From positions 1 through 54,252 of the IMG/VR virus record IMGVR_UViG_3300021373_002055: 54,252 nucleotides of DNA, one strand, 5' to 3'. Within the stretch, counting starts at the first letter, position 1. Every line of letters begins with the position of its first letter. The notes beneath the pieces were generated by a model that was given only the letters and a program-made list of their open reading frames with translations, did no database searches and had not been told where the DNA came from. A program made the translations under genes and the position numbers. The DNA comes from a virus. Lineage: Duplodnaviria; Caudoviricetes. Positions 4,098-41,567 of the stretch are shown piece after piece.

Positions 4098-4275
4098 CTC
4101 TAATAATTGAACATTGTTCATATAACTCTAATTCTATTGCATATTCAAGGCTTTCGTCTAAAAATTTTTGTTTGCGTGTGTCGTCCCATCTTTCTGGCCA
4201 TTCCCAATCTGTAGTTTTCATGTGATTGATTGACCGTTTAAATAGAACCTCAACAAAATTTCTTGCTTCTTCCAT
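4072..4275 (-). CDS. small protein with UVR-like C-terminal motif
   Basis: AIELELYEQCSIIRD resembles the UvrB/UvrC hairpin (E-x-Y-E-x-A-x-x-x-R-D). Confidence 0.55.
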   Translation of the reverse strand: MEEARNFVEVLFKRSINHMKTTDWEWPERWDDTRKQKFLDESLEYAIELELYEQCSIIRDVQKTIKA

Positions 4276-23614: not shown

Positions 23615-24268
23615 TTATAATCCTTCGTATAATTTATTTTGTCGTTCTTGTCGATCAATTGTTTTGTCGTGACGTAAACACCACTGCTCTTCAATTGGAA
23701 GATAACTCATTGTCCGGTAGCCTTCTAATACTTCATGAACTCGATTTACCCATGTTATCTTTTTATTGTTCTTGTAAATGCGCCATTGAAAGTCCGGAAA
23801 GTTTACCCAACCTTGATCATTAACACCCCAATTCCATTTTGCTATATGTTCTTTAGTAAGCCCTTCAACTGTGTTTATTCTAGGAACTTTTAACACATCA
23901 ACGTCATTATGTTTTAATACTTCAGGTATCATATCCATCATATATGTTGTAGGCATCTCATCTGCGTCTATCTGAAATATGTAATCTCCTGAGCAATTAT
24001 CTGTTAGGTTGTTTTTAAAGTTGGCAAAGTGATTATCTAATGAAAAATCACATATAAATTTAATTCGACCTTCTTTATATAAATTACCACAATATAGATT
24101 AACTTCCATTTCGGGTGTTAGTGGAGTATGGGATGCAGATTTTTTATATGCCCCATCTTGTTGTACAACTATCTCATCTTGCTCACGTTTGTTTTCTAAA
24201 AGAAAATTCAGTAAACGTTGTATCTCTATAAATTCATTGCAGACTGTTATAGCGTAACTTATTTTCAT
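23615..24268 (-). CDS. glycosyltransferase family 2
   Basis: ISYAITVCNE, FQIDADE, PDFQWR, VHE. Confidence 0.85.
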   Translation of the reverse strand: MKISYAITVCNEFIEIQRLLNFLLENKREQDEIVVQQDGAYKKSASHTPLTPEMEVNLYCGNLYKEGRIKFICDFSLDNHFANFKNNLTDNCSGDYIFQIDADEMPTTYMMDMIPEVLKHNDVDVLKVPRINTVEGLTKEHIAKWNWGVNDQGWVNFPDFQWRIYKNNKKITWVNRVHEVLEGYRTMSYLPIEEQWCLRHDKTIDRQERQNKLYEGL

Positions 24269-24447
24269 TCGGAGTGTTTTTCTAAATCGTTTAACAATGC
24301 TAAAGTTTCACCAAAATTATAGTATTTACATTTGCCTAATTTTATATAATAGTCAAAGGTATCTCGATTTATTCCTATATTGATTTCAATACCGGTAATT
24401 AATTTGGATCTTTCTATTTTTAATAATTCTGTTTCTTTCTGTGTCAT
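24265..24447 (-). CDS. hypothetical protein
   Basis: 60 aa, first gene after a class A promoter, ATGA-coupled to the next gene. Confidence 0.55.
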   Translation of the reverse strand: MTQKETELLKIERSKLITGIEINIGINRDTFDYYIKLGKCKYYNFGETLALLNDLEKHSE

Positions 24448-24452
24448 ATTAT

Positions 24453-24481
24453 ATTATAATAAATTTACTTTAAATATCCTA
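24453..24481 (-). promoter_or_regulatory. class A promoter candidate TAGGAT-N17-TATAAT
   Basis: 17-nt spacing; heads the inner glycosylation operon. Confidence 0.55.
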
Positions 24482-25735
24482 TACTTTTTGAAGTTTTGGA
24501 AGTTTTAATTTAGGAAGTTTTAATTCTACTTGCTCTGGTATACTATTAGTACCTTTATCAATAATATCCAATAACAAGTCATATTGTTCAGATACAGCGG
24601 TTTCCGTAAATTTGCTATTAACAAAATATCGTTGACGAGTAGCCAATTGTTTCCATCGTTTATAATTTTTAAGAACGTCTACTAGCATTTTGCTGGCATA
24701 CCCATAATCAACCGTAAACCATTGGGCTTCTTTTAATAAGAAGTTGTTTGCTGCAGATTCATGTATATTAGTTAACGTTCCTGGTAATGCACATATGAAT
24801 TCCTTTTTCAAGAAGTCGGCCTGGCCAGAATAATGTGGAGCAATAATAGGTTTACCTGTTGTAGCAAATTCTAATAACGGTCTTCCGAATCCTTCTGCTT
24901 TTGTAAAACTAATCATGGCTTTAATTTTTTTGTCATTATACAATGCATTCATTTCTGCATTTGTTAAATCTCCATGAAGTAAATACACTGATGGTAGTTT
25001 GTGTTTCTCTGCTCCAAATGTATCTCGTATCTGATTGATTTTGTTTTCAATCTCCCAACGATCTGTTACACTATATGTAGCCCCACTTGTTTTCAGTACT
25101 AGAGCCGGCTTAGTTTTTTTGTCTTTGAATGTTTTAAAGAAACAATGCAACGCGCCGCTTATATTTTTTCGATCTTCCCCCAATTGGCCAGACAACCAAT
25201 GTCCACACATTAAGAATGCTTCTTTTTCTTGGATAGTCGACAAAGCCGGTACCGAAGTAGTTACGTTGTTACTGTCATATATTTTATCATTGAAATATTC
25301 AGATATTACTTGTAAATTGGTAGTTATAGTTTTACCATGTTTTGCTGCCGTATCTTCGAAAGTCTTTTTGGTAAATTCACTTGGTACAATGGTTATTTGC
25401 ATTTGATTGATTCTGTCAATCCATTCTGGGTTACAAACACTTCCTTCTGTCCCTGCTGTGACTCCTATATTGTATTGACCAACTGCTTGAAACTCATTAG
25501 GCACAGTTATTTGTACCCAGATATCTGGCTTAGTTTGTAATGGTAATCCTATAAACTTTTGTCGCCACTCAGTAGGTATAGGATATGTAAATGGAGTATT
25601 GCCCCATGGCATTGAAAGCAGATTAATATCCCATTCATCTTTTTTCTTGTCTATAAATTGTTTAATAACTTCTCGGGCATGATGTCCGTAACCAGATTGT
25701 GTTGCTACTGGTGATGATATAACTACTTTTCTCAT
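24479..25735 (-). CDS. GT-B (family 4-like) glycosyltransferase
   Basis: SGYG, DRKN, EGFGRPLLE (EX7E). Confidence 0.85.
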   Translation of the reverse strand: MRKVVISSPVATQSGYGHHAREVIKQFIDKKKDEWDINLLSMPWGNTPFTYPIPTEWRQKFIGLPLQTKPDIWVQITVPNEFQAVGQYNIGVTAGTEGSVCNPEWIDRINQMQITIVPSEFTKKTFEDTAAKHGKTITTNLQVISEYFNDKIYDSNNVTTSVPALSTIQEKEAFLMCGHWLSGQLGEDRKNISGALHCFFKTFKDKKTKPALVLKTSGATYSVTDRWEIENKINQIRDTFGAEKHKLPSVYLLHGDLTNAEMNALYNDKKIKAMISFTKAEGFGRPLLEFATTGKPIIAPHYSGQADFLKKEFICALPGTLTNIHESAANNFLLKEAQWFTVDYGYASKMLVDVLKNYKRWKQLATRQRYFVNSKFTETAVSEQYDLLLDIIDKGTNSIPEQVELKLPKLKLPKLQKV

Positions 25736-27204
25736 TATGCTATTCCTATGTTTTCGTATTGTTTTTCTTCAACTTTATTAAATGTGTATCTAGGGCGGCT
25801 CAAAGGTCGACTAATTAATAAATCAGTCATTTCGATAACTTTGTCTGCCATTTGCTTTGCGGTTAATCCATTATCCAAACAAAACTGTCTACCTCTTGCG
25901 CCTAATGCTAGTCTTGAAAATAAATCCATATCCCACCAATGATGCATAGCATCTGCTACATCTTCTGGTTGACATCTATCGTCAAATATATACGGTGTTG
26001 GCACACTTCCTTGTAATGATCTGTTGCTTGGAAATACTGGTTTAGCCCAAGCCCCATGTCTATTATATTTACCCATATGATTAGTTGGAAATTCTCCATC
26101 GAATCGTATCCATTCATCATTTTCATCTAGGAATCCACATTGGTCTTGAAGACCTCCGGTAACATTGTTTATGATAGGTGTTCCTGCTAGCATTGATTCT
26201 GTGCTACTTAGTCCCCAACCTTCATTGCTGGCTATATTCACAACTACATCGGCAACGTTATACATTGCATTAAGATCCTGTACAGAAAGTTTAGCTTCTG
26301 AAAACATTATTTTACAATCCGGAGCAATATTCTTTGCAACTGCTCTTAAATCAGTTCCGTTGCCATCAGTTGGCGTTGTGTGCATAAGCAGCATTGTTTT
26401 GCTTCGTTGTTGTGGCGTTAACTTGTCATTGAACATTTTAAATGCAAGTATCACATCACCTGGTTGTTTTCTTCTTATATTCCTATTATTCCAAAATACT
26501 ACAAAATCTGCGCCATTGGCTTCTTTTATTTGTTTGTGCATATTTTGATATTCGGGTTTATTTCGATCTAATGGTGTATATACATTTTCGTCTAATCCAT
26601 GTGGTACATATCCGGTAATGATACCTTTTTGATCTTTTTCTTCTGAATCATAGTCATATACCTCAAATCCATTCTGTTTAAGCACTTCTCTGTGTATATT
26701 GTCTGACTGCTTACTGATTCCCATAATCATATCGCAACTACCGTAAAATGGGGCGTTCCACATTGGATACGGGAGATCGTCCCAAATTGAAAGATATGAA
26801 ATAGGAGTACCATATGTAGTTTTAATTTCGTGCTCTAAAGCATATAACCATGTCCAATATCTTGGATCGGTAAAATGCATAATAACATCTGGCTTTTCTT
26901 GATTTAATATTGAGAATAGTACATTACGATCGCCATATCCTGTCCATGGAATAACTTTTACATCAGCATCCGTAACACCCGTCTCTTGAGCTACTTGTTG
27001 TGATACATCTTGACCCTTACCGTGATTGGGATGCTCAAGAGCTGCTCCTAGTTGCACCCAATCATAATGGTGAACTGTTTTCATGATTATTTCACGACTA
27101 ATAGTTCCAATACCACTTGGTAAACGAAAATCATCAGATAGTAATAATATTTTTTTCTTTGTTGGTTTGTTAGCTTCTACTGGTTGTAGCTTTGGTAACT
27201 TCAT
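25735..27204 (-). CDS. GT-B (family 4-like) glycosyltransferase
   Basis: SGIG, VPHG, NRNIRRK, EGWGLSSTE (EX7E). Confidence 0.85.
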   Translation of the reverse strand: MKLPKLQPVEANKPTKKKILLLSDDFRLPSGIGTISREIIMKTVHHYDWVQLGAALEHPNHGKGQDVSQQVAQETGVTDADVKVIPWTGYGDRNVLFSILNQEKPDVIMHFTDPRYWTWLYALEHEIKTTYGTPISYLSIWDDLPYPMWNAPFYGSCDMIMGISKQSDNIHREVLKQNGFEVYDYDSEEKDQKGIITGYVPHGLDENVYTPLDRNKPEYQNMHKQIKEANGADFVVFWNNRNIRRKQPGDVILAFKMFNDKLTPQQRSKTMLLMHTTPTDGNGTDLRAVAKNIAPDCKIMFSEAKLSVQDLNAMYNVADVVVNIASNEGWGLSSTESMLAGTPIINNVTGGLQDQCGFLDENDEWIRFDGEFPTNHMGKYNRHGAWAKPVFPSNRSLQGSVPTPYIFDDRCQPEDVADAMHHWWDMDLFSRLALGARGRQFCLDNGLTAKQMADKVIEMTDLLISRPLSRPRYTFNKVEEKQYENIGIA

Positions 27205-29876: not shown

Positions 29877-30091
29877 TATAAATTATATTTTTTTCGCCAT
29901 TTAGCTTCAAAATCCGGACCCATTCCCATTTCTAATATTATAGCATTTTCTGGGATACCAACCAATTTTTTTGCTGTTAATATATCATCGATACTCTTAC
30001 GTTTATATGTTTTAATTTTTGTCTTTGCATTGCTGCGATTACTTGTTTTAAAAACTAGAGTAATTGTTCCCTTTAAGATCTTATCTGCCAT
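29876..30091 (-). CDS. hypothetical protein
   Basis: 71 aa basic ORF, TAATG-coupled. Confidence 0.6.
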   Translation of the reverse strand: MADKILKGTITLVFKTSNRSNAKTKIKTYKRKSIDDILTAKKLVGIPENAIILEMGMGPDFEAKWRKKYNL

Positions 30092-30219
30092 AATCTTTTT
30101 ATTATTAATTTAGGTTTAAACTGTATTAAACTTTCATGATTTGCTACAATTATATCAATTAGATTAATATGAGCAAAATGATCTGGACATAGTCCTATTA
30201 CATGTAATACTTCGTGCAT
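30073..30219 (-). CDS. small hypothetical protein
   Basis: MHEVLHVIGLCPDHFAH; start 30219 immediately after upstream stop. Confidence 0.5.
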   Translation of the reverse strand: MHEVLHVIGLCPDHFAHINLIDIIVANHESLIQFKPKLIIKRLWQIRS

Positions 30220-30220
30220 A

Positions 30221-30400
30221 TTATTGATTTGCGTGTTCCAATTGATTTTCATTGAATATATGTAATAATCCAAATTCATCCATTTCTCCTACAATTCGAA
30301 TATCTCCTTTAAGGGTTTGAAATACTCCTACTATAGTACATGGAAATGCATATCCTTTTGGTTTTACTGCTTTGTCGCCAACTTTAAATTTACTTTTCAT
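30221..30400 (-). CDS. SH3-fold small protein resembling type B (R67) dihydrofolate reductase
   Basis: FKVGDKAVKPKGYAFPCTIVGVF...LLHIFNENQLE aligns by eye to [23 protein letters not shown]...SVQIYPVAALE. Confidence 0.45.
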   Translation of the reverse strand: MKSKFKVGDKAVKPKGYAFPCTIVGVFQTLKGDIRIVGEMDEFGLLHIFNENQLEHANQ

Positions 30401-30407
30401 TTTAACC

Positions 30408-31334
30408 TTATATTTCATTCATAATATTAACAAACATAGCCATTATGTTTATTTCTTTGTCTACCACCGTAGCATCTTTAAACTGTGCTTCTGCAATAAT
30501 CAATATAATTGCAGCAATATGACCTGTAGCAAACTCTTCTAAATTATCATATAAAAATGTATATAAAGGTGTAAAGTCTTTTACTTTGCTATCTGCAATA
30601 CATTGTCGTATTTTATTAAAGGTTGCTTTTTTGTCTTTAGCTGTTTTAAGCATTTCCAATACCTCGGTCATATAATTTGCTTGTATTGCACTAGCTTTGT
30701 CTAATTGCAACACACCATCTACCACTGAAGCTTGAGCAGCATTGATTGCTCTTCGTATATCCGGATATGATGCATTGATAATTGCTGCAATATCCTGAAT
30801 GTCGTATGTAACCCCTTTTTGTTCTAACACCGTAACTAATCGCTTTGCCACATCTGTTTTATTAGGAGGTGTTATTGCAAATGTCTGACATCTGCTTTGT
30901 ATTGGGTCGATAATCTTTTCTACATAATTACATGTTAATATGAATCGAGTAGTTTTGCTATATGTTTCCATTAGGTTTCGCAGAGCTGCTTGAGCATTAG
31001 GTGTCAAATAGTCTGCTTCATCTAATATCACAATCTTCCAACGTTTAAATCCTACAGTTGATGCATAACGCTTAATCTTGTCTCGAACTGCATCTACTGA
31101 GTTTTCGTCTGATGCGTTAATATACATCATATCAGCATCCACACTACCAGCAATAATTTTTGCTAAAGTTGTCTTACCGGTTCCAGCTGGTCCAAAGAAT
31201 AACAAATGCGGAACATCCCCATTCTTAATGAATATCTTGACTTTGTCAATAATATGCTCATTACCAATATATCCATCCATTGTGTCTGGGCGGAAGGATT
31301 CTACCCATAATGTATTTTCTGTTACTCCAAACAT
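30408..31334 (-). CDS. clamp loader large subunit (RFC/T4 gp44-like AAA+)
   Basis: LWVESFRP, GPAGTGKT, INASD, ILDEAD, QSRC. Confidence 0.92.
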   Translation of the reverse strand: MFGVTENTLWVESFRPDTMDGYIGNEHIIDKVKIFIKNGDVPHLLFFGPAGTGKTTLAKIIAGSVDADMMYINASDENSVDAVRDKIKRYASTVGFKRWKIVILDEADYLTPNAQAALRNLMETYSKTTRFILTCNYVEKIIDPIQSRCQTFAITPPNKTDVAKRLVTVLEQKGVTYDIQDIAAIINASYPDIRRAINAAQASVVDGVLQLDKASAIQANYMTEVLEMLKTAKDKKATFNKIRQCIADSKVKDFTPLYTFLYDNLEEFATGHIAAIILIIAEAQFKDATVVDKEINIMAMFVNIMNEI

Positions 31335-31341
31335 AATTTAT

Positions 31342-31773
31342 TTATTTATTACCTGTTGATCCAAATCCGTGTTCGCCTCGTTTAGTACCTGTTAGACTTG
31401 TTACTGGATTCCATTCTATTCGTTCTACTTTGTTCATTACCAATTGACCAATTCTTTCTCCTTTTTGCAAAAAGACTTGTTCTTTTCCATGATTAATCAA
31501 GATTACTCCTATTTCTCCTCTATAATCTGCATCTATTGTGCCAGGACTATTCAATACGGTTATTCCTTTAGACAAAGCCAATCCGCTTCTAGGTCTAACT
31601 TGAATTTCATAGCCAATTGGAATTTCAACGGATAATCCTGTTTTAACTAACAATTTATCACCCGGATTGATAGTGGCATCATGATTAGATCTTATATCAC
31701 AACCAGCCGCAGCTGCGGTTTCTGCCATTGGCAATTTAATGCCAGCGTCTTTTACTACTACGTTAACTTGCAT
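31342..31773 (-). CDS. dut: trimeric dUTPase
   Basis: AGCD, PRSGLA, GTIDADYRGE, RIGQL, RGEHGFGSTG. Confidence 0.95.
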   Translation of the reverse strand: MQVNVVVKDAGIKLPMAETAAAAGCDIRSNHDATINPGDKLLVKTGLSVEIPIGYEIQVRPRSGLALSKGITVLNSPGTIDADYRGEIGVILINHGKEQVFLQKGERIGQLVMNKVERIEWNPVTSLTGTKRGEHGFGSTGNK

Positions 31774-31774
31774 A

Positions 31775-32485
31775 TTAATTTTGTAATTGTACTAACCAAT
31801 AATTGGACTCAAAATCACTACCATCAAAGTCAATTCTTGATAATCCTTGACTCGAAACATGCATTGTACCTTTGTCGCCTTTATTAGCAACTAATACTTC
31901 CTTGAGCTTATCAGCACTAAAACATATTGGCTCTAAATCACCTTCAGAAGTCGTACCAACAGAAAATGTAATGTTGTCTGAATTAACGGTTGAATAGTTA
32001 ATAATAAATTTAATTTCTCCATTGACTACTTGCACTGCAAAATTCTTAGCATCTGGTAATGCATTTTTTGCTTTGATAAATTTTGTCACAAATTCATCGT
32101 CTATTGGCAGAGTCACTTCATATGGTGGCTCAGCATTGATAGCGGGAACTGCAGGAATAACGGTTGTGTCTGCTAACATGAAAGTTGCTTTAGTGCTCCC
32201 TTCGCTAATCTTCATAGCATAGTTTTTACCGGCAGCATCTTGTACATCTATATTGATGTTTTCGCCAACTGCAGACAACATTTTCATCAATGCTCCTGTA
32301 TGATTGATACCCAATTCTCCCTTCATAAAAGGAGTCGTTTTCCATTGCAGTTTCCCAACCACAGTTTGATCCATGTCGATAAGTTCACAACCTACCCCTG
32401 TTTCATTTTCTTTTAATATTACCGCTTCGCAATTACCTGCAAGATAATAACGATTGATAAATGATTGTAATTTACTTTTTTCCAT
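31775..32485 (-). CDS. sliding clamp (T4 gp45/PCNA-like)
   Basis: 236 aa two-domain alpha/beta pattern ending SNYWLV; next to the clamp loader. Confidence 0.7.
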   Translation of the reverse strand: MEKSKLQSFINRYYLAGNCEAVILKENETGVGCELIDMDQTVVGKLQWKTTPFMKGELGINHTGALMKMLSAVGENINIDVQDAAGKNYAMKISEGSTKATFMLADTTVIPAVPAINAEPPYEVTLPIDDEFVTKFIKAKNALPDAKNFAVQVVNGEIKFIINYSTVNSDNITFSVGTTSEGDLEPICFSADKLKEVLVANKGDKGTMHVSSQGLSRIDFDGSDFESNYWLVQLQN

Positions 32486-32497
32486 TGTATAACCTAA

Positions 32498-33754
32498 TTA
32501 AAATTTAAAAAATTTCTCGAATTGTTTAGCATCGGTAGTTGATATACTATCTCCACCAAATTTCTTGTATGTCTTTTTATATGTTGCATATACATTCATT
32601 GCATTGTCTGGATCTGCGAACATTTCGTGTAATGATAGTATAACATTAAATAATTCCTTTGGAATAGCCGTTTCTAATAATTCAACATGATTATGTGTCA
32701 ATTTATTAATGTCTTTAACAATTTCACAATACAGATGCGTATTATGAACTACCATTCGGGGCATTCCTTCTTGTGAATATCTGTCTAACCCAGTTGCTGT
32801 CTGTCCTCCTAAGTATTCATATGTAAAGTCTTTACATGCTGGGCAGTCAATACTACAAGGAACATGTTTAGTTTTGTCAATGCTTATTTCACCGTCTTTG
32901 CCTTGTTTAACATGAGTCTTTCTGCGATACTCAGCATTCTTTGGAAAATACAATTCAGTGAATGTCTGTGTCTTATAGTTGCCAGAATGAAGATATGTTC
33001 CAAATACTGGATATTGACCTGGTGAAGATGAGTCAGACATCAATTGTATGCGATTGTCTGTCAGTTTATTCAATAACTCTTGCAAGGTTGCTAATATAAA
33101 GAAATCTGATATTTTGCTTATTCCTAGCAAATGCACATATTCTACATGTTTCTTTTCAAATTCTCGTTCTTGAAGCATTAGTGCAATTACATACATAAAG
33201 TCTACTAATTTTTTAGGACCTCCTATACACCAACCTTTAAAGTCAAAGTCTTTGAACTTGTGATACCATTCTTTATATTCCTCACTAAATGTACCTTGAA
33301 TAACATTTAAGAATTTTGTCTTACCACTTTGATTTTTTTCAAACCATTTAAAATTGTCAAATGATATATCCATTGAGTCTTGAAATCTATTTTCAAATGT
33401 AACTCTAGGTGGTATATCTAAGTTTGCGGCTACATCACTATTAGCTTCTAACCAATGAAATATTTTTTCACGAATTGTGCTATCCCATTTAAGAGCACCA
33501 GTAGCAATCTGGAATCCTCCTGAGTCGCCAAATACAAATGTTTCGTCATCTAATCCCAATTGGTCACGAAAATCCATTTTCTTGTAATGATGTCCTGCTG
33601 TTACCAAAAAATATGGATGTCTCCACTTTTCGGGGTATTCTTTTGCAAAGAATCGCATTGTAGTGCCATCTTCAAATTTAGTATCCTTTTTAAATGCAGA
33701 TACCATGCTACCCGCAGATAATGACGGTATATATAAAAACTCTTTTCTATCCAT
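32498..33754 (-). CDS. dpdA: TGT-family transglycosylase, probable DNA 7-deazaguanine insertase (DpdA-type)
   Basis: DSGGFQ, LDIPP, NVIQG, WCIGG, HLLG, DSSS, CxxxCPAC...HN zinc site; context of folE/queD/queE and replisome. Confidence 0.8.
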   Translation of the reverse strand: MDRKEFLYIPSLSAGSMVSAFKKDTKFEDGTTMRFFAKEYPEKWRHPYFLVTAGHHYKKMDFRDQLGLDDETFVFGDSGGFQIATGALKWDSTIREKIFHWLEANSDVAANLDIPPRVTFENRFQDSMDISFDNFKWFEKNQSGKTKFLNVIQGTFSEEYKEWYHKFKDFDFKGWCIGGPKKLVDFMYVIALMLQEREFEKKHVEYVHLLGISKISDFFILATLQELLNKLTDNRIQLMSDSSSPGQYPVFGTYLHSGNYKTQTFTELYFPKNAEYRRKTHVKQGKDGEISIDKTKHVPCSIDCPACKDFTYEYLGGQTATGLDRYSQEGMPRMVVHNTHLYCEIVKDINKLTHNHVELLETAIPKELFNVILSLHEMFADPDNAMNVYATYKKTYKKFGGDSISTTDAKQFEKFFKF

Positions 33755-34922
33755 TCTGTTCCTGTTCTAATAAATGTTTACAATATGCTTCTTCATGCCA
33801 CACATTGATTTCTTTGTCATAGTCATTTGCTATAATATAACCTTCCATCTGTCGACCTAAGTCTGATACAATTGGAAATCTCATAGTTTGAAAGTTATTG
33901 CCTCGTTCAATAACATGATCAAATGTCTTTAAGCAGTCATTGACATCAAATGGTTGATATAGTTTGTCTTGTGGTATAAATTCCGGGAATGATCTAAAAT
34001 TAGGATATACAACATCACAACCAAACAGAGTAGCTTCTAGCACTGTCCAAGAGACATAGTCTTGTAAAGCTGAATTAAATTGTATACGAGCCGTGGATAA
34101 TTGTTCGTAATATTCTTGTTTAGTTAAGTTATGCATACAAACAAATCTAGGTTGACGTTTTTCTAGCTCATGCATTGCTCCCAATACCCCCGGCAACGAA
34201 GATTTAAATTCTTTACCAGATGTGGTAACGTGCCATGTCCAATTAGGATTATCTGCTAAAAATGCTTCTGCTACTTCAAGCATAAAAAACGGATTCTTTT
34301 CTTTGTCTAATCTACTAGAATATACAACAGTATTTTGTCGTTGATCTAATGGATTGTACTTTGGATTCTTATCTAATGCCATTTCTGCATGTAATGGAAG
34401 TGAAACAACGTGTATTGGTGCTTCAAATCCTGCTTGTCTGAGTTGTTCTTTATGAATAGTAGAACCTACAAATATTCCTGTCATTCGTTTGTCTAATCCT
34501 AATTCAAAACCACGCATCCATGAACGCATTGGATACACAAAGTCATATTCGTCTACACTTTGTGCGTGAAGCATTGAATAAAATTTCAAATCAATACCAT
34601 ACAAGTCAATCGCATATAATATAGACTCAATACCCGGATGCCAATAGTCTTGAAGAAATATGATATCGCCATCGTTTACTTCTCCACGATTAAGCATATC
34701 TAAAAAGTTAGCACATTGACTCATTGCAAATTTGCCTCTGCCTACGGCGTCGAGTACTACTCCAATCTTTATTTGCTGATCGGGGTCAAACTCTCCTTCA
34801 ACGTCTATAAACTCTAATTGATCTGCATATGGCTTGAAAGTAGCCGGCATCCATTCTTTTGATAGCTGATATGTATATCTAGCTTTTAGCGGCTCTAGGC
34901 CAAAATAAAATAATTTTCTCAT
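33747..34922 (-). CDS. GT-B fold glycosyltransferase inside the DNA-modification operon
   Basis: VYSSRLDKEKNP, QDYVSWTVLEATLFGCDVVYP, SFPE; start MRKLF at 34922 by ATGA overlap. Confidence 0.75.
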   Translation of the reverse strand: MRKLFYFGLEPLKARYTYQLSKEWMPATFKPYADQLEFIDVEGEFDPDQQIKIGVVLDAVGRGKFAMSQCANFLDMLNRGEVNDGDIIFLQDYWHPGIESILYAIDLYGIDLKFYSMLHAQSVDEYDFVYPMRSWMRGFELGLDKRMTGIFVGSTIHKEQLRQAGFEAPIHVVSLPLHAEMALDKNPKYNPLDQRQNTVVYSSRLDKEKNPFFMLEVAEAFLADNPNWTWHVTTSGKEFKSSLPGVLGAMHELEKRQPRFVCMHNLTKQEYYEQLSTARIQFNSALQDYVSWTVLEATLFGCDVVYPNFRSFPEFIPQDKLYQPFDVNDCLKTFDHVIERGNNFQTMRFPIVSDLGRQMEGYIIANDYDKEINVWHEEAYCKHLLEQEQNG

Positions 34923-35263
34923 CTTTCTATTATTGCTCCGTTTTCCCAATCTTCCCATACTTCTACTTTATATAGATAACCAGGATTATTATTTAATATC
35001 CATTCTCCAATGTCTTCACAACTCATTCTACCAAATTCTAATATATTACCACCAAAATTAGTTCTTAATTGTTTTTTTAATCTTCGCTGCATTAAGATAA
35101 ACTCTTCATCTCTATCTGTATGACTTACTTTTGCATAACAACGAAATCCAAATTGATGTCTATGTCTATCTGATAAAAATGCTACTTCTTGTAACACTTC
35201 GTTAGCTTCTGGCCAACTATGAAATCCTTCTGCGGTAAATGATACTACTACACTATATTTCAT
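34919..35263 (-). CDS. QueD-paralogous T-fold protein (DpdL-like)
   Basis: EGFHSWP, LSDRHRHQF, DRDEEF, SCEDI, VEVWEDWENGA. Confidence 0.7.
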   Translation of the reverse strand: MKYSVVVSFTAEGFHSWPEANEVLQEVAFLSDRHRHQFGFRCYAKVSHTDRDEEFILMQRRLKKQLRTNFGGNILEFGRMSCEDIGEWILNNNPGYLYKVEVWEDWENGAIIER

Positions 35264-35712
35264 ACTTGTTCATCAAATTTATAGTTATCTGGCTTAATTT
35301 CCATCATGTTGCATTTAGTAACCTGATGAACTCGATACCAACCAGCATCTACACTGAATGTGTCTGTGTCTTTTAATTTTTGTAATGCTTCGTCTTGAAT
35401 ACGATATATAACATGGCAACGATTAAATACATCTGGTGGTAAATTTCCTAATACAGATTCATTAGCTTCTATAGTAATTACACTATTTGTAGAGTCTAAT
35501 ATTGCCCTAATAGGATCATATAAATTTTGTTTATTTTGCCATTTATCAGAATTCATAGCAGCCTCCATATATTCTATAGTAAAATAATAATGAGGATAAT
35601 CACATAAATTTTCTACATTAATACCATCTCCTAAGTTGCGAACAAAGTATGTCATCATGTCTGAGTAACGACCTTCTACTTCTCTACCACGCCATTGATC
35701 TTTTCCGTACAT
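35260..35712 (-). CDS. hypothetical protein heading the DNA-modification operon
   Basis: 150 aa; GREVEGRY...TYFV N-terminus; ATGA-coupled to the T-fold gene. Confidence 0.7.
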   Translation of the reverse strand: MYGKDQWRGREVEGRYSDMMTYFVRNLGDGINVENLCDYPHYYFTIEYMEAAMNSDKWQNKQNLYDPIRAILDSTNSVITIEANESVLGNLPPDVFNRCHVIYRIQDEALQKLKDTDTFSVDAGWYRVHQVTKCNMMEIKPDNYKFDEQV

Positions 35713-35727
35713 ATAACTTTTTTATTT

Positions 35728-35756
35728 ATTATAGTAAATTTATTCTTATTTTCCAA
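35728..35756 (-). promoter_or_regulatory. class A promoter candidate TTGGAA-N17-TATAAT
   Basis: 17-nt spacing upstream of 35712. Confidence 0.65.
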
Positions 35757-38256
35757 AAGAAAAGAATTTATTCACTGTATTATTTTCTGGTAATTTACCC
35801 CAATTCATTGCAGCATAGAAATCATCTATTTTACCCTGCAGGTCTCGTTCGAACATCTTATCTCGATCAATATACATATTAACAAATTCAACTAATTCAG
35901 GTGGATCTTCGTATCCTCGAAGTGCCATAGTATCAAATCCATATGGATTATTTTTAAGATATCCCCATTTAACCTTTTCACCATTTTTAATTTCAGTAAC
36001 ATCAGTTTTTAATTGTGTTAACATATCATTAAAATTTATTGCAGATTTAACATGGGCAGGAGTTCCTGACATATATCCAGTAAATGGCTTACGTGCTTTT
36101 GTATATTTAGAAACCTCTTTGACACCAGAATTTTTCATTACGTCTAATACATTGGATTTTTGTATAGATTGTTTAAAGTCAAATATAACATCGGAAGTAT
36201 CTGTTTTGCTTTTTTCTTTCAACACACACCACAAAGTTTCTTTCATTATCTTTTTGAAATCTGTTGGGAAACTACTCCTAACTACATCTAAACCTTTGAT
36301 ATCCATTTTATCCGTAGGTTTGCCTTCTTTGAATATGACCCATTGAGCATATCTCTTTTTTGCTATCCAAAGACCAGATTTAGCAACATATTCCTGTTTA
36401 ATCTGAAATTGATGCTCTGTTGTATTGTGAAAATGCACAGCATACTGATCATACATGGTATTAACATACTTTTGTATTTCGGATGCTACTTCGTTTGTCT
36501 TTTCAATCATGAATTGTTCATCAGTTTCATCATATCCAGGATAACGCTTTTCTATGAGTGGTAATGAACTAACAAATGTAGAATCTGTGTCTGTATAAAA
36601 ACTAAATTCTGCTTTATTACCATTTGCATTGATAAAATGATCTTTACCAGTTTCTTTAGCATAATATGCATTGATTGCTTTTGCAGAAAATTTAATTACA
36701 CTTTGACCTGTTGCTGTAATAGCACCTGCATTGTCTAAGTCATGGAATCGGAAAGTCTTAAGTCCCAATACTCCATAAAATGAATTCAACAACACTTTTT
36801 GTGTTAATTGCAATGCATCATAAAATTTATATTCTTCAGAGCCAACTTCATACTCATCTCGCTTGTTTTTATATTCAACACGCTCAATAAACCATTTTTT
36901 AAGAATAGCTGGAAGAAACCCAATCCTAGATGTATCATATACCGCTCCATTACTAGCAACTGTATATTTGTTATCTTGTAGCCATTGTTTAACGTCTGGT
37001 ATAGTTTGATTGTTAATCGTAACAGATACAGCATCAGATTGTAACAAGTATTCTTGATTCCAATTTTTAATAACTCCAATTTTAGTCTCTGGAGATATAT
37101 TCAAACTCATAATAATACTAGGATACAGAGAAGTTAAATCTAAATCGTATATCCATTTATATAGCCCTGGAATTGGAGGCATTACATATGCTCCTGCTAA
37201 TGCATCTTGCCGTTCTTCTTCAATAAATCGAAATTGTTTGTTAGGAGCAACATATCCGTTACGCTTCAAGTCTACAATAGCAGCACCATCAAGATATTTA
37301 GATGCGTAATATACATCTTCATATGGAACATGTCCTTTATGGCATATAGTTCTTGCAAGATTGATGAGTTGTAGTTTTTCGTCTAATTCATATACCAAAT
37401 CAACATCTGTCATATTATAATAAGCAAACTTGTGAATGTCTTGTTCAAACAAATCATCTAAATCGCCATCATATTCAACTTTACCCTTATTGAGTTCAGT
37501 TTTACCAACAGTGTCTAATCTGTAATTAGGAAGTTCTGTGTATGTGAAGTTTTTATATAATTTAATATAATCTAAACTAGATACACCAAATATCTTCCAT
37601 TTTTTACTTTTAGGATTTTGTGTAACAATTCCTGCAGGCGAAAATTTCTTGATAGACTGATTGCCTAATACTTTTTTACATCTGCCTAATAAATATGGAA
37701 TATCATAACCGTCAGTATTCCAACCAGTTATAACAGTAGGCTGTATTTCTGCAAATGCGTTTATGAATCTAGTAAGTAAGTCTTTTTCACTGCGAAATAT
37801 TTCCAAAGTATATCCGTCACCTTGTATAACACTATCTTTGATGCGTTTACGTTCATCTAATATGAGTACTCTGCGGTCATTACCACTTTTATCATAATAT
37901 GCTATGGATGTTATAGCCGTTCTTACATCCTCAATAGTACTATATCCATTCTCATCTTTTGCCGTTTCAATATCAAAGAAAAAGTCTCTATGTCCTTTAG
38001 AAACAGTGTCATCTTCATAGTATAAATCTATTAGAGTGCGAACTTCTTCATTTAAATCAGATTCATATGCATCTGGGTTATCTCGATGATTGCCGGGGAC
38101 TTTAGCCAATTGTACACCATCCAATGTTTTGTATTTACCAGTGTCGGAAGGCAAATATCCATATGGTTGAAATGGAAACTTTTGATGACCTAATTCATCA
38201 TCCCATACGTGCATTATGCCTCCGCGCTTGTCATAACCTATTGCTTGATATGCCAA
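35746..38256 (-). CDS. family B DNA polymerase
   Basis: exonuclease FDIET, GWN...YDIPY, YNMTD; polymerase DLTSLYPS, KVLLNSFYG, YTDTDS, KKRY. Confidence 0.96.
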   Translation of the reverse strand: MAYQAIGYDKRGGIMHVWDDELGHQKFPFQPYGYLPSDTGKYKTLDGVQLAKVPGNHRDNPDAYESDLNEEVRTLIDLYYEDDTVSKGHRDFFFDIETAKDENGYSTIEDVRTAITSIAYYDKSGNDRRVLILDERKRIKDSVIQGDGYTLEIFRSEKDLLTRFINAFAEIQPTVITGWNTDGYDIPYLLGRCKKVLGNQSIKKFSPAGIVTQNPKSKKWKIFGVSSLDYIKLYKNFTYTELPNYRLDTVGKTELNKGKVEYDGDLDDLFEQDIHKFAYYNMTDVDLVYELDEKLQLINLARTICHKGHVPYEDVYYASKYLDGAAIVDLKRNGYVAPNKQFRFIEEERQDALAGAYVMPPIPGLYKWIYDLDLTSLYPSIIMSLNISPETKIGVIKNWNQEYLLQSDAVSVTINNQTIPDVKQWLQDNKYTVASNGAVYDTSRIGFLPAILKKWFIERVEYKNKRDEYEVGSEEYKFYDALQLTQKVLLNSFYGVLGLKTFRFHDLDNAGAITATGQSVIKFSAKAINAYYAKETGKDHFINANGNKAEFSFYTDTDSTFVSSLPLIEKRYPGYDETDEQFMIEKTNEVASEIQKYVNTMYDQYAVHFHNTTEHQFQIKQEYVAKSGLWIAKKRYAQWVIFKEGKPTDKMDIKGLDVVRSSFPTDFKKIMKETLWCVLKEKSKTDTSDVIFDFKQSIQKSNVLDVMKNSGVKEVSKYTKARKPFTGYMSGTPAHVKSAINFNDMLTQLKTDVTEIKNGEKVKWGYLKNNPYGFDTMALRGYEDPPELVEFVNMYIDRDKMFERDLQGKIDDFYAAMNWGKLPENNTVNKFFSFGK

Positions 38257-38486
38257 AGTCTTTCCTTTTTAGTTTTGCATATGTTCCATATGCCGTAAAT
38301 ATTAATTGATATAATAACTAAACTCAACACCATATGGCTGATATTAGTTATTAACAAATCATACGTAACCCAACCAATATCTCCAAGTATCCAAGAAAAC
38401 ATTGCTAGTTTAGTATAGTGCCGGGCATTAAAAATATACCCCGCTAAAACTAATATGGTGCTAATCCATCCTAGAGTCTCAATCAT
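38238..38486 (-). CDS. small 3-TM membrane protein (half-size PnuC-like pattern)
   Basis: LGWISTILVLAG...SWILGDIGW...INIYGIWN. Confidence 0.55.
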   Translation of the reverse strand: MIETLGWISTILVLAGYIFNARHYTKLAMFSWILGDIGWVTYDLLITNISHMVLSLVIISINIYGIWNICKTKKERLWHIKQ

Positions 38487-38772
38487 TGACTACTGCAATT
38501 TCCGATTCTCTTACTAATACATATTGAGTGTCGTCTAATACAATCTCTTTGTTCTCGCCTAAATTAGACTTATAAACATATACCGAGTTTCCAACTTTGA
38601 CTGTCATTGGAATACGAGCTCCTGTCTGAGTAAATAACCCATCTCCAGTTGCTACTACTTCTCCTAACACAAATGCCATGTCTCGATCTACGAGTATAAT
38701 TCCAGATTTTGTCTTTTCTGCAGTTTTTTCTACTTTTAGCAATACTTGATCGCCAATTGGTTTCCAATTCAT
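38479..38772 (-). CDS. groES: co-chaperonin GroES (Cpn10)
   Basis: KPIGDQVLL, KTKSGII, GEVVATGDG, VKVG, LVRESEI; likely start 38772. Confidence 0.9.
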   Translation of the reverse strand: MNWKPIGDQVLLKVEKTAEKTKSGIILVDRDMAFVLGEVVATGDGLFTQTGARIPMTVKVGNSVYVYKSNLGENKEIVLDDTQYVLVRESEIAVVND

Positions 38773-38864
38773 AACTTGTTCCTTTTCCATTGTATGTTTT
38801 TATATTTATAAATGTATTTTATTTTTAAATTTTCGTATGTTGTTGTGCTATACCAATACATCAT
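38769..38864 (-). CDS. 31-aa microprotein (missing from ORF track)
   Basis: MMYWYSTTTYENLKIKYIYKYKNIQWKRNKL; ATGA overlaps at both ends. Confidence 0.5.
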   Translation of the reverse strand: MMYWYSTTTYENLKIKYIYKYKNIQWKRNKL

Positions 38865-39097
38865 AACCTTTTTATATTGTCAATAGTTACACTGTTTCCT
38901 ACTATTCTTGATACTTCTTGTCCTTGTGCATCGATTCGCATAAAACAAGGAATATTTCTAACATTGTAATGGTTAGCCGTTGCCATATCTTGATCAATAT
39001 TAATTGTTCGAAATGGAACGGTTAACTGATTCAATTTAGGCTTTAATAATTTACATGGTCCGCACCATGGTGCTGTAAAATATAGTAATTGACTCAT
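38861..39097 (-). CDS. thioredoxin
   Basis: FTAPWCGPC, VRNIPCF. Confidence 0.9.
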   Translation of the reverse strand: MSQLLYFTAPWCGPCKLLKPKLNQLTVPFRTINIDQDMATANHYNVRNIPCFMRIDAQGQEVSRIVGNSVTIDNIKRL

Positions 39098-39867
39098 TAT
39101 ACTCCTCTTTCTGTATCATATGCAATGATGTGGTCTCTACCTGTCATATTATAACCATGTTCAGCAACCATTTCAAATACGAGTGGATACATTTTAATTA
39201 ATTCTTCTCTTGTGTCTCCAGCTGGCATAACATATGTTTTATGTTTTGGTATATTATGCAATACACGGAAGTCTTCAATTTCTTTTAAAGTTTCTTCGGT
39301 ACCATCCCATACTGGTTTATAATGATAGTCATGATGATATTTCAATGTCTTGCTAATAGCTTCATGATTCAATCTCAATCTGTTATGTGTCTTGATCATT
39401 TTTTCATCAACTATTTTACCGGCAGGAGTCTTAGTTCCGACAACCGGCACACTATTGCTAAACTTAGGTGAAAGTGACACTAAATCAAATGGCATTGGTG
39501 TTTCTATAAAATGACTACCTTCTGTTTCTACAGTTGTCATAATACCACGTTTAGATGCAAACAATGTTAATTCATTCATTAAAGCAGGATGCATTGTGGG
39601 AGAACCTCCCGTTATCATCATCTCTTTAACTTGTGGATTAGCATCATATATGTCTACAATGTCTTGAAAGCAAAATGTGCCTTTTTCTGGATGTATACTA
39701 GTATACCATGAATCACACCAACCACCTTCGCCAAAATAACATCGATGAGTACATCCGGTTGTTCTTATTGCTATAGTGGGCATTCCGAATCTACTGCCTT
39801 CACTTTGCACACATCTGTATACTTCTAATACAGGTAATCTTTTTTTATAATCTTCTATTCGTTTCAT
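39097..39867 (-). CDS. queE: 7-carboxy-7-deazaguanine synthase (radical SAM)
   Basis: VQSEG, IRTTGCTHRCYFGEGGWCDSWY, ITGGSP, VETEG, SLSPK; likely start 39867. Confidence 0.9.
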   Translation of the reverse strand: MKRIEDYKKRLPVLEVYRCVQSEGSRFGMPTIAIRTTGCTHRCYFGEGGWCDSWYTSIHPEKGTFCFQDIVDIYDANPQVKEMMITGGSPTMHPALMNELTLFASKRGIMTTVETEGSHFIETPMPFDLVSLSPKFSNSVPVVGTKTPAGKIVDEKMIKTHNRLRLNHEAISKTLKYHHDYHYKPVWDGTEETLKEIEDFRVLHNIPKHKTYVMPAGDTREELIKMYPLVFEMVAEHGYNMTGRDHIIAYDTERGV

Positions 39868-39868
39868 A

Positions 39869-40207
39869 CTAGAATGGGAGGTCATCGGCAGGGCCGACAT
39901 TACTATTGGTAACATTTATTAATTCATTTAATTTATTTTCTAATCGAGTAACTTTATCATGTAACATATCAAACTGATCTTTACGTACTAATATCTGTTC
40001 AGGTCGTTTATATATACTGTCTAAAAAGTCTATAGGCCATGTTGCAACTGATTTATACTTATCATTTTGCAATTCTTCTGGTAACATCTTGGTTCCTGAC
40101 TTGATGCCTCGACTTGCTGCTAACTCAGCAACTCGTATGCCGTCATCAGAGTTAGCAGTAGACCGACCTAAATAGTCATATAAAGATACATATACAGTTT
40201 TACTCAT
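39869..40207 (-). CDS. hypothetical protein between queD and queE
   Basis: VSLYDYLGR N-terminus, coiled coil, ends DDLPF. Confidence 0.65.
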   Translation of the reverse strand: MSKTVYVSLYDYLGRSTANSDDGIRVAELAASRGIKSGTKMLPEELQNDKYKSVATWPIDFLDSIYKRPEQILVRKDQFDMLHDKVTRLENKLNELINVTNSNVGPADDLPF

Positions 40208-40661
40208 AACTTGCTGAATTTTTAGCGTGTTCGTATACTTCAACTTTACTAGCTCTTACACGACCGTCTGTTTCTTTAAGTAAGAATCCATTGATAACCT
40301 TATATAAAAACTCTGCAAACTTTTCGCACCCAGTATCATCAATAACTCTGAGTTGAATAATACCTTGTGCATCCATCATTCTGAATGAATCTAGCTCTGG
40401 GTCGTCGTTTGCTATGATTACTGTGTGATCTAATAACCAATCAAAATAATCTTTCGGAGCATATCCATTTATTTCGTGTTTAGAACGTTTCATACCACCA
40501 AAGTCAAATACCCAGTTGCGATGATCCAATTCTCCTTCAAACCATACTCGAAATGATAGTGCATATCCATGTAAATAACTACAATGCGTTTCAGTTGCTT
40601 TCCATTGTCGGAAACAAGTTGAGTATCCGTCAAATAATTTAGTTGATGTAAATTTAGCCAT
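40200..40661 (-). CDS. queD: 6-carboxy-5,6,7,8-tetrahydropterin synthase
   Basis: HCSYLHGY, WVFDFG, LDHT, GCEKFA, VEVYEH. Confidence 0.9.
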   Translation of the reverse strand: MAKFTSTKLFDGYSTCFRQWKATETHCSYLHGYALSFRVWFEGELDHRNWVFDFGGMKRSKHEINGYAPKDYFDWLLDHTVIIANDDPELDSFRMMDAQGIIQLRVIDDTGCEKFAEFLYKVINGFLLKETDGRVRASKVEVYEHAKNSASYE

Positions 40662-41319
40662 TATATCCTTTTACAAATTCATAATATTCATTTCTAGTTG
40701 CTGGGTCGTCTTTGAATGCACCTGTCAGTTTGCTTGTCTTCATTGATGCACCTCCGTGCTTAACACCTCTACATGATACACAATTATGGGTAGCATCAAT
40801 CATAACAGCAACACCTTTATTGTCATTGATAATAGTATCAATTGAATTGTGTATAGCAACAGTTAGTTGTTCTTGAATAGCACCACGTCTTGCAAAATGC
40901 TCTACTAATCTATTCAATTTACTCAAACCAATTACTTTGCTATCGTTACCTGGAATATATGCTACATGCACTTTACCCATAATGGTTTGATGATGATGTG
41001 AACACATTGATGTTAATGGAATACCTCCTTCGAATACCATACCGTCATATCCATCACTAGGAAATGCAGTAATATTAGGAGCACCATTATATCTACCTGC
41101 CCATAAATCGTTTACATATGCTTTTGCAACACGATGTGGTGTATTGTCTGAGTTTGGATCATTTCTCCAATCACATTTAAGTGCATCTAAAAACAAACCA
41201 AATGCATTTGCTGCAGCATTAATCATTGTAGCTTTCTGATTTTCAGTGAGAGGCTCATTCTGAGCCACACCATTAGCAAAGCCTTCTTTAACTAGTTCTA
41301 TACTTTTCTTTATTGTCAT
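40654..41319 (-). CDS. folE: GTP cyclohydrolase I
   Basis: TPHRVAK, SMCSHH, GLSKLNR, IQEQLT, HNCVSCRGV. Confidence 0.95.
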   Translation of the reverse strand: MTIKKSIELVKEGFANGVAQNEPLTENQKATMINAAANAFGLFLDALKCDWRNDPNSDNTPHRVAKAYVNDLWAGRYNGAPNITAFPSDGYDGMVFEGGIPLTSMCSHHHQTIMGKVHVAYIPGNDSKVIGLSKLNRLVEHFARRGAIQEQLTVAIHNSIDTIINDNKGVAVMIDATHNCVSCRGVKHGGASMKTSKLTGAFKDDPATRNEYYEFVKGYNG

Positions 41320-41338: not shown

Positions 41339-41367
41339 AATATAATATATTTTATTGGGCTTTCAAA
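41339..41367 (-). promoter_or_regulatory. class A promoter candidate TTTGAA-N17-TATATT
   Basis: 17-nt spacing upstream of folE. Confidence 0.6.
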
Positions 41368-41567
41368 GTTTTTTCACCTTTTTTATTTTTTGGATAATAT
41401 GGACAATGTCGACAACCATTACCGCAACAATAACCTCGCCTGGTATGATATGATTCTGTCATGACACGATATCCATTTTCATAGTAAAAATCTGTAGAAA
41501 GGAGCTTGTTTCCAAACTCCCTTACATATGCTTGTTGTATCCAATCTTTATCCGCCGGAATCATCAT
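41352..41567 (-). CDS. small Cys-rich protein (DUF5522-like)
   Basis: YHTRRGYCCGNGCRHCPY. Confidence 0.75.
   Translation of the reverse strand: MMIPADKDWIQQAYVREFGNKLLSTDFYYENGYRVMTESYHTRRGYCCGNGCRHCPYYPKNKKGEKTLKAQ

Follow-up and report, generated by a model that had tools for sequence, protein, structure and literature searches.

What would a glycosyltransferase (GT) do inside a phage gene cluster for placing 7-deazaguanine bases in DNA? The question is raised by a 54,252-nt fragment (the window, always taken at this full length) of a virus of the Duplodnaviria (Caudoviricetes), IMG/VR record IMGVR_UViG_3300021373_002055, an uncultured marine phage that CheckV rates as ~32% complete. At 32498-35712, four minus-strand genes stand head to tail and encode: (i) u150, a protein of 150 aa, (ii) DpdL, a paralog of QueD, (iii) a GT of 403 aa, and (iv) a DpdA of the tRNA-guanine transglycosylase (TGT) family. 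A preliminary description of the sequence had placed four overlapping genes here, and all four open reading frames are present on the minus strand at these positions. The reading that we favor, at a probability of about 45%, is that the cluster represents a QueC-less, DpdL-type 7-deazaguanine DNA-modification system to which the GT and u150 are integral, with the DNA carrying a sugar-bearing 7-deazaguanine instead of plain deoxy-7-deazaguanosine (dDG). A fuller version is more tentative: glycosylated 7-deazaguanine may occur in the DNA of these phages and some bacteria as the first sugar-bearing purine in DNA, made on the free base by DpdL, DpdL-fused u150 and the GT, with a DpdA tethered to the sliding clamp inserting it at the replication fork. 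Judged by sequence comparison, the module is in any case a real, well-conserved DpdL-type variant with a dedicated GT and a DpdL-linked partner.

DpdL and the deazaguanine base pathway

The 114-aa protein encoded at 34919-35263 (minus strand) is assigned by homology to the DpdL family of proposed 7-carboxy-7-deazaguanine (CDG) decarboxylases. It shares 36.5% identity over 114-115 aa with CGPG_00067 of Cellulophaga phage phiST (tblastn 2e-12, BLASTP 1.4e-18) and matches phrog_17812 (1e-20), which confirms the earlier view of it as a QueD-paralogous, dpdL-like protein with the sequence LSDRHRHQF. According to the accessible part of the source (Cui, Hutinet et al., NAR 2023, PMC10516641), the phiST protein was named DpdL and proposed, without proof, to decarboxylate CDG, and DpdL is a PTPS/QueD paralog without the cysteine on which catalysis depends in the QueD motif. 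This cysteine is also missing from our 26-sequence alignment, in which L30, H34, H36 and F38 of LSDRHRHQF (residues 30-38) are invariant. The window protein satisfies the LxxxHRHxF motif that replaces CxxxHGH of QueD (motif as defined in the same part of PMC10516641), and, as in the definition of Cui et al., it co-occurs with DpdA, FolE, QueD and QueE, without QueC. In two other phages, DpdL forms the C-terminal third of a longer protein: Vibrio phage Bakedbeans gp176 (L094:9221-10372, 383 aa) and Chryseobacterium phage MA9V-3 (L091:9452-10333, 293 aa).

The genes for the base precursor lie 3-6 kb upstream of the module on the same strand (39097-41319). They encode FolE, the GTP cyclohydrolase I of the first step to the deazaguanine base (40654-41319; PF01227 5e-46, NCBIfam FolE 4e-47), QueD, the CPH4 (6-carboxy-tetrahydropterin) synthase (40200-40661; PF01242 PTPS 9e-15, with 37-40% identity to QueD of phages ACP17, BCSR5 and BUCT-ZZ01), and a QueE-like radical SAM (S-adenosylmethionine) enzyme, the putative CDG synthase (39097-39915), which matches TIGR03365 QueE at 5e-14, under the cut-off, and the QueE of phage BCSR5 by BLASTP at 1e-9. 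Neither the window nor either of two relatives rated 100% complete by CheckV (169 and 173 kb) encodes QueC.

Conservation of the glycosyltransferase with DpdL

The GT gene (33747-34958, minus strand) is found with the same partners in 80 related IMG/VR loci, in which the GT is 66-97% identical to that of the window. The order polymerase-u150-DpdL-GT-TGT-clamp-dUTPase is kept wherever the contig reaches: the TGT follows the GT in all 80 loci, DpdL precedes it in 79 (the single miss starts inside the GT), and u150 is present in 65, the remaining 15 contigs ending short of its place. Between u150 and DpdL, 26 of these 80 relatives (L007-L086) carry an additional PF01467 cytidylyltransferase-like gene of 133-141 aa (e.g., L023:5302-5727), and seven have a 167-aa gene of no assigned family there instead; one locus (L074) also has an HNH-type endonuclease gene. 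The window itself has none of the three.

Beyond this lineage, tblastn with the GT matches 23 cultured-phage records. The family lies within a deazaguanine cluster in six cultured lineages (Pseudomonas phage PA5oct and relatives, Acidovorax phage ACP17, Synechococcus phage BUCT-ZZ01, X1 and BUDD, BCSR5, and Phosso), where it adjoins DpdL, DpdA or both in several differing gene orders. In viral contigs of the lineages L104, L105 and L106/L107, the order is either FolE-QueD-DpdL-GT, with u150 or a radical SAM gene between the last two, or QueD-QueE-FolE-DpdL-GT; in L104 and L106, the GT is followed by short proteins that could not be assigned to DpdA. The GT tracks DpdL whichever type of DpdA is present, i.e., DpdA2 in ACP17, X1, BCSR5 and BUCT-ZZ01 and a DpdA3-like protein in the window and PA5oct.

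The association extends to bacteria. A motif scan of a collection with one genome per prokaryote species recovers 11 GT relatives, 10 with an adjoining DpdL; the eleventh is on a 3.8-kb contig where u150 directly precedes the GT. Eight of the 11 have the arrangement GT-DpdL-long DpdA-QueD. They belong to Magnetospirillum, Sulfotelmatobacter and one metagenome-assembled genome (MAG) each of the Rhodospirillaceae and the Verrucomicrobia, and their contigs reach 1.4 Mb (Magnetospirillum); the loci on bacterial chromosomes are L119-L125. Genes for a CoiA-type nuclease and a HEPN_LA2681 protein are directly upstream of the module in one Magnetospirillum contig (L123:1250-11215), an arrangement that looks like a modification-restriction island and suggests that bacteria use the module for modification and restriction. 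Two short u150-(DpdL)-GT contigs (L115 and L116), with a GT 70-77% identical to that of the window, are assigned to a Candidatus Nitrosopelagicus MAG and are most likely misbinned phage contigs. Co-conservation of the GT with dpdL and dpdA, which the preliminary description had set beforehand as a test, is found in unrelated phage lineages and in bacteria; the conserved gene order that it also looked for holds in 79-80 of the 80 related loci but gives way in unrelated phages to the same neighbors in differing orders.

Sugar-handling genes, as judged by their annotation, accompany the module in some lineages; the PF01467 insert of the 26 relatives and a second GT-B in BUCT-ZZ01 belong here. A PIG-L deacetylase gene in BCSR5 and its homolog in X1 stand just before the GT, and the PA5oct cluster includes an epimerase/dehydratase (short-chain dehydrogenase/reductase, SDR) fragment and a phosphoribosyltransferase. 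Neither type of gene could be accepted as part of the module in the window lineage: PIG-L is found in none of four relatives' records, and the phosphoribosyltransferase is present in three of the four but ~40 kb from the module. Homologous PF00156 phosphoribosyltransferases adjoin QueE in the unrelated phages PA5oct (L001:8351-8785) and BUCT-ZZ01 (L003:3093-3554), where a role in salvage of the guanine that DpdA sets free, or in deazapurine nucleotide synthesis, is conceivable. In BCSR5 (L005:6158-7525) and X1 (L004:6338-7526), a PAPS (3'-phosphoadenosine 5'-phosphosulfate)-reductase-like ATP-pyrophosphatase and the PIG-L/LmbE-type deacetylase are encoded directly upstream of the u150 homolog and the GT, a pairing of deacetylase and GT that recalls BshA/BshB or MshA/MshB (N-acetylglucosamine transfer followed by deacetylation).

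These neighborhoods make it improbable that genome packing alone has brought the GT into the cluster and that its target lies elsewhere (e.g., a protein, a cell-surface glycan or another DNA base). The idea draws on the large separate glycan island of the window and on the remaining five cultured-phage matches to the GT (Xanthomonas phage PhiXhv-12 and its kin), which are distant relatives (~22% identity) and, in PhiXhv-12, come without DpdL; the wider GT clade is thus not confined to deazaguanine clusters. In the jumbo phage PhiXhv-12 (L101:4654-7888), GlmS, a BshB-like deacetylase and the distant GT form a block, which may be another sugar-based modification system. Against such a target, the GT adjoins DpdL in phages of Bacteroidota-type, cyanobacterial, Pseudomonas, Xanthomonas, Acidovorax, Burkholderia and Sinorhizobium hosts and on bacterial chromosomes, its neighbors are constant even though gene orders vary, and the genomes of three of three control phages have just one copy of it, within the cluster.

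Fold and predicted activity of the glycosyltransferase

The GT model (predicted local distance difference test, pLDDT, 79.5; predicted template modeling score, pTM, 0.82) has the two Rossmann domains of the GT-B fold, and this model settles the class of the 403-aa protein, as had been claimed for it, despite a Pfam score below the cut-off. Close homologs of the protein carry a precomputed PF00534 assignment. BshA is the nearest structure (Foldseek 2e-11 to 5d01; VIA-align Z 24.2, root-mean-square deviation 3.9 over 322 residues, to 3mbo_D) and is followed by a plateau at Z 20-23 that includes SenB, MshA, sucrose-phosphate synthase and two tetrahydrobiopterin glucosyltransferases. On this model, the fold is that of a GT4-like retaining transferase. 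DNA glucosyltransferases are absent from the top 50 structural matches, and sequence searches of the PDB with the GT and the TGT returned nothing useful. The true start of the GT is probably M13 (34922), as some homologs begin there, residues 1-11 of the model have a pLDDT <50, and the overlap with DpdL would then be 4 nt.

Conservation points to a working enzyme. Across 11 sequences of seven lineages that share just 22-37% identity, R216, E220, K221, P223, L278, K280, Y283, E308, S323 and E326 are invariant, and position 300, eight residues before E308, is D or E. We take R216/E220/K221 to be the site at which GT4 enzymes bind the diphosphate through basic residues, and D/E300-x7-E308 to be their E-x7-E element. 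With this conserved donor site and the modeled fold, the GT has the look of an active enzyme. A separate group of residues is invariant within the N-terminal, acceptor domain (E22, R27-Y28-T29, Q81, D104, D139 and E152), which fits a single specific acceptor common to the family. The isoelectric point was considered as a hint of DNA binding and is uninformative, since the GTs are acidic (pI 5.4-6.2) and so are most DpdAs.

The tetrahydrobiopterin glucosyltransferases among the structural matches (9v0l, Z 21.1; 5zes, Z 20.3) raise the possibility, which we regard as highly improbable, that DpdL and the GT turn the FolE product into a pterin glycoside, comparable to cyanobacterial biopterin glucoside and unconnected with DNA. 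DpdL is after all a PTPS/QueD paralog, and the host of BUCT-ZZ01 is the cyanobacterium Synechococcus elongatus PCC 7942. However, DpdL lacks the QueD catalytic cysteine, the two pterin enzymes fall inside the GT4 plateau and below the BshA-type enzymes (Z 24.2), a sepiapterin-reductase partner is not conserved, the GT always adjoins DpdA or QueE, and DpdL tracks the loss of QueC.

DpdA and its polymerase-like tail

The 418-aa product of the last gene (32498-33754, minus strand) was described earlier as a TGT-family enzyme and scores above the cut-off for PF01702 (29.4 versus 26.3 bits), with the match covering just residues 104-181. It carries GDSGGFQ (76-82) and SDSSSP, which presumably hold the catalytic Asp residues of TGT. 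The closest relative is QCG76197 of PA5oct (25.6% identity over 293 aa, E 8e-20), which is listed as a DpdA3 in sheet DS1, the part of PMC10516641 that bears on it. The match to ACP17 DpdA2 is weaker (1e-6), and that to the short phiST-type DpdA3 profile is not significant (hhalign probability 1.3%). Because the PA5oct DpdA3 is matched and the short phiST-type profile is not, the protein is described here as a long, DpdA3-like DpdA.

The DpdA C-terminus (...FEKFFKF; 65 of 65 relatives) resembles that of the family B DNA polymerase of the window (...NKFFSFGK; 35746-38256, minus strand, PF00136 5e-40), which has a related motif in 51 of the 51 relatives read. Ten other proteins of the window have no such C-terminal motif. 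Similar pairs of polymerase and DpdA tails occur in ACP17 (...SLDDLFE / ...TLDELFE), X1 (...SLESLFG / ...SLEELFG) and BUCT-ZZ01 (...TLDDFFS / ...SLDSFFD); in PA5oct, the pairing does not hold. In T4-type phages, the polymerase C-terminal tail binds the sliding clamp. From the shared tails and this role of the tail in T4-type phages, we infer that the DpdAs ride the sliding clamp, which would fit a complete, post-replicative exchange of guanine in DNA. The tail, together with the place of the gene between the polymerase and clamp genes, points to DNA rather than tRNA as the substrate. Grouping with tRNA-acting TGT enzymes, which the preliminary description had considered as a case against its proposal, has no sign in its favor here, as the closest classified relative is a DpdA3-classed protein and the polymerase tail motif is present.

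The tails also bear on whether the sugar is added after insertion, with the GT acting on deazaguanine in DNA in the manner of the T4 glucosyltransferases or QTMAN, an order of events that by analogy with these enzymes is conceivable, if rather unlikely. The GT-B fold is common to DNA- and RNA-acting transferases, the Magnetospirillum module stands beside nuclease and HEPN genes, and BUCT-ZZ01 has a second GT-B (447 aa; L003:5010-6353, also L126:1168-3678), encoded between FolE and DpdA2, whose end (...SLEDFFND) is the tail motif of its polymerase and DpdA2, as if it too docked on the clamp. The conserved GT, by contrast, is without a polymerase-type tail in all seven lineages read, dDG has no hydroxyl to accept a sugar, and no DNA glucosyltransferase appears among the 50 best structural matches noted above.

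u150, a partner of DpdL

u150 (35260-35712, minus strand) belongs to a ~140-aa family that accompanies or is fused to DpdL. The protein has no match in Pfam, PHROG or NCBIfam and no tblastn match in cultured phages; it has 431 close metagenomic relatives. A u150 profile searched against 1.84 billion representatives matches 108 proteins at E<=1e-3, mostly of 135-165 aa, a few of which are spurious leucine-rich repeat proteins. Two of the matches are fusions (P0339, 371 aa; P0342, 268 aa), in which an N-terminal DpdL domain, HRH motif included, is followed by a C-terminal u150; P0342 as a query found no viral contig. A broader u150 profile detects the gene directly before the GT in BCSR5 (155 aa, 4e-17) and X1 (143 aa, 1e-12) and, weakly, the 132-aa gene directly before DpdA2 in ACP17 (7e-5). 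PA5oct has a partial match 27 kb away from its deazaguanine cluster. No u150 is detected in seven GT-free DpdL phages. By fusion and neighborhood, u150 is a partner of DpdL that goes with the GT-type module as an accessory; its patchy distribution across the GT lineages shows that it is not a universal one.

The origin of u150 is suggested by little more than a hint. Its model (pLDDT 80) has nothing at E<=0.001 in Foldseek against the PDB and no usable match in the protein atlas; the best VIA match (STAS domains, Z 5.4) is within noise, and the profile against the PDB returns just ribosomal eS1 or leucine-rich repeats, which are spurious. Compared with QueE, hhalign gives a probability of 24.5% (E 8e-4) over 25 columns at the N-terminal EG...G..T.F motif; in this weak match, the invariant N-terminal G-x-E-V-E-G-R...T-L-F of u150 aligns with the QueE segment that precedes the iron-sulfur cysteines. 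Three QueE structures align to u150 over 121-126 residues at VIA Z 4.5-5.2, which is within noise, and u150 has no Cys cluster. There is thus a hint of a stripped-down QueE. An argument for the same origin from gene position was dropped, as the QueE-like radical SAM gene that takes the place of u150 in L105 (hhalign 94%) fails to align with it. The phiST protein CGPG_00066 and its MA9V-3 homolog, encoded in the position of the GT, were likewise considered as u150 and rejected: they have a P-loop motif and no match to u150.

DpdL phages that lack the glycosyltransferase

A GT profile built from the seven lineages was run on the whole records of seven DpdL phages. D479, MA9V-3, phiST, Roos, Bakedbeans, RHph_I1_18 and Ahp1 have no real match, the sole one being of 14.7 bits with five stops; the positive controls each gave exactly one copy, inside the cluster (3/3). 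In six GT-free lineages, the DpdA that adjoins DpdL is short (259-303 aa), compared to 416-540 aa in the GT lineages; RHph_I1_18, with a 422-aa DpdA3 and no GT, is the exception. In the accessible part of PMC10516641, dDG was measured solely in the phiST group, and DpdL plus DpdA of either ACP17 or phiST yielded no dDG in Escherichia coli, with further enzymes perhaps required. The DNA of PA5oct withstands restriction at sites that contain G and is attacked by nucleases that sense modified G, with the base not identified in the part of PMC12191111 available. The literature searched, parts of which were accessible only as excerpts, held no base identification for a GT-carrying phage.

The E. 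coli result can be turned to another account of the module, in which the final base is plain dDG, free of sugar, and its synthesis requires the GT and u150, perhaps because it passes through a short-lived intermediate linked to a sugar, perhaps because the two are accessory DpdL subunits. The failure of the ACP17 pair alone, the fusion of u150 to DpdL and the association of the GT with DpdL rather than with a type of DpdA all agree with this account, which we nonetheless consider quite unlikely. Phage phiST makes dDG with neither a GT nor u150, its own DpdL and DpdA likewise failed in E. coli (as reported in the same part of PMC10516641), so the failure is not specific to the GT lineages, and the conserved donor-binding site suggests genuine sugar transfer. 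On the preferred reading of a sugar-bearing base, the GT module may itself explain why DpdL and DpdA alone were insufficient in E. coli.

Proposed pathway and its difficulties

In the proposed pathway, FolE, QueD and QueE, by homology, convert GTP to CDG. DpdL would then process CDG together with u150, the two being one polypeptide in some organisms, and the GT4-like enzyme would move a sugar from a nucleoside diphosphate sugar to the CDG-derived moiety. With DpdL and u150 taking part, the sugar would more likely be added to a soluble molecule (the free base or a precursor) than to DNA. DpdA, docked on the clamp, would exchange guanine for the modified base behind the replication fork. Sugar transfer before insertion is favored because the GT follows DpdL and u150 and not the type of DpdA, is without a clamp-type tail, has small-molecule GT4 enzymes as its nearest folds and belongs to lineages with long DpdAs.

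Several points weigh against this pathway. Each of the arguments for transfer before insertion is weak, and the chief chemical obstacle is the lack of an obvious hydroxyl acceptor on both CDG and 7-deazaguanine (DG). The 403-aa protein scores only 19.5 bits with Pfam Glycos_transf_1, below the cut-off of 26.4, and the structural plateau (Z 20-24), on the model, is silent on the acceptor. The tail motif that the second GT-B of BUCT-ZZ01 shares with its polymerase and DpdA2 would suit a transferase that acts on DNA. The GT is missing from about half of the DpdL lineages and is thus not required for deazaguanine insertion as such, and u150 is undetected in BUCT-ZZ01, Phosso and the bacterial loci. 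Many of the GT lineages are large T4-like or jumbo phages; thus, the independent origins are fewer than the records. Overall, the preliminary description is borne out in part: its gene identities and the co-conservation of the GT stand, its sugar on the base or a precursor stays a prediction, and its promoter does not stand (see below).

If the reading of a sugar-bearing base is true, glycosylated 7-deazaguanine would be a new class of purine DNA hypermodification, with a bearing on phage evasion of restriction, CRISPR and glycosylase defenses and with new enzymes for DNA labeling. Phages with the GT module are in culture (PA5oct, BUCT-ZZ01, Phosso, ACP17 and X1), and phiST provides a close GT-free control with a measured base.

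Genomic setting of the module

Nearly every gene of the window is on the minus strand, and the G+C content is ~33%. The phage is a distant T4-like one, with a family B polymerase of at most 44% identity to those of cultured phages, and the type IX secretion sorting domain in one of its proteins suggests a Bacteroidota host. Within the module, u150 and DpdL overlap by 4 nt, DpdL and the GT by 40 nt, and the GT and TGT by 8 nt; the polymerase gene ends 33 nt upstream of u150. As described earlier, the genes continue downstream of DpdA on the minus strand into the sliding clamp (31775-32485; phrog_223 3e-8), dUTPase (31342-31773; PF00692 4e-31) and the clamp loader large subunit (30408-31334; PF00004 and PF13177). 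The class A promoter claimed for the operon did not hold up: the sigma-70-like consensus match in the 33-nt gap before u150 (TTGGAA-17-TATAAT; 35728-35756, minus strand) does not exceed chance, with 42 promoter-like sites at 30000-39000 versus 47.6 +/- 7.4 in shuffles and 7 occurrences of the core TTTACTATAAT in the window versus 6.2 expected.

A 12.5-kb glycan block (14690-27204) encodes three GT2, two GT1-type and one TOD1/MUCI70-like transferase, NeuB, a CMP-sugar synthetase, two epimerase/dehydratases and a 2-hydroxyacid dehydrogenase. The preliminary description had noted this island at 6.5 kb from the GT; the distance is right, but no link of the block to the deazaguanine module was found. 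Between queD and queE, a minus-strand frame of 124 aa (39869-40243) with a TTG start overlaps both and may not be a gene; it has no family match at E<0.05 and no BLASTP relative in six comparator clusters. The window also encodes a family A polymerase-like protein (50491-51813; PF00476, 440 aa) in addition to the family B enzyme, as well as ClpS (3831-4121), Cpn10 (GroES; 38479-38790), thioredoxin (38861-39097) and a DUF5522 protein (41352-41567), the gene for which is flanked by those for ribonucleotide reductase and FolE.

Comparison with known systems

The eight 7-deazaguanine DNA bases known to us are all small, and none bears a sugar. The literature searched held no description of a sugar on a purine (including a deazaguanine) in DNA and no link between a GT and DpdL, a name that occurs in just one work of those searched; the word 'glycosyl' has 0 occurrences in the main text of PMC10516641, which leaves glycosyltransferases unmentioned. 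Enzymes that glycosylate bases of nucleic acids are known in other settings. The T4 alpha- and beta-glucosyltransferases are GT-B enzymes that transfer a sugar onto 5-hydroxymethylcytosine in DNA, and QTMAN is a GT4 enzyme that transfers a sugar onto queuosine, a 7-deazaguanine derivative, in tRNA. The window GT is not known to be related in sequence to either, and their acceptors have a hydroxyl, whereas CDG and DG do not. The nearest folds to the GT are those of retaining GT4 enzymes with small-molecule acceptors (BshA, MshA and SenB), with which it shares the GT-B architecture (Z 22-24 over ~320 residues) and conserved elements that we take to be the R...EK and D/E-x7-E motifs of GT4 enzymes. 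Unlike these enzymes, to which identity is ~10%, the window GT family has its own N-terminal invariant set.

Among deazaguanine systems, the dDG system of phiST is similar in having FolE, QueD and QueE without QueC, an LxxxHRHxF DpdL and a DpdA-family transglycosylase that adjoins replication genes. It differs in that phiST encodes a P-loop kinase-like protein of 159 aa in the place of the GT, its DpdA3 is short (259 aa, compared to 418 aa in the window), and its genome has neither the GT nor u150, both of which the window has. PA5oct and ACP17, listed in sheet DS1 of PMC10516641 (the part at hand) as DpdA3+DpdL and DpdA2+DpdL, respectively, encode the same GT family, there between DpdA and DpdL, and the accessible part of that paper does not note it. 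By contrast with the window, PA5oct has another gene order and adds the phosphoribosyltransferase and the SDR fragment; it also supplies the closest classified relative of the window DpdA.

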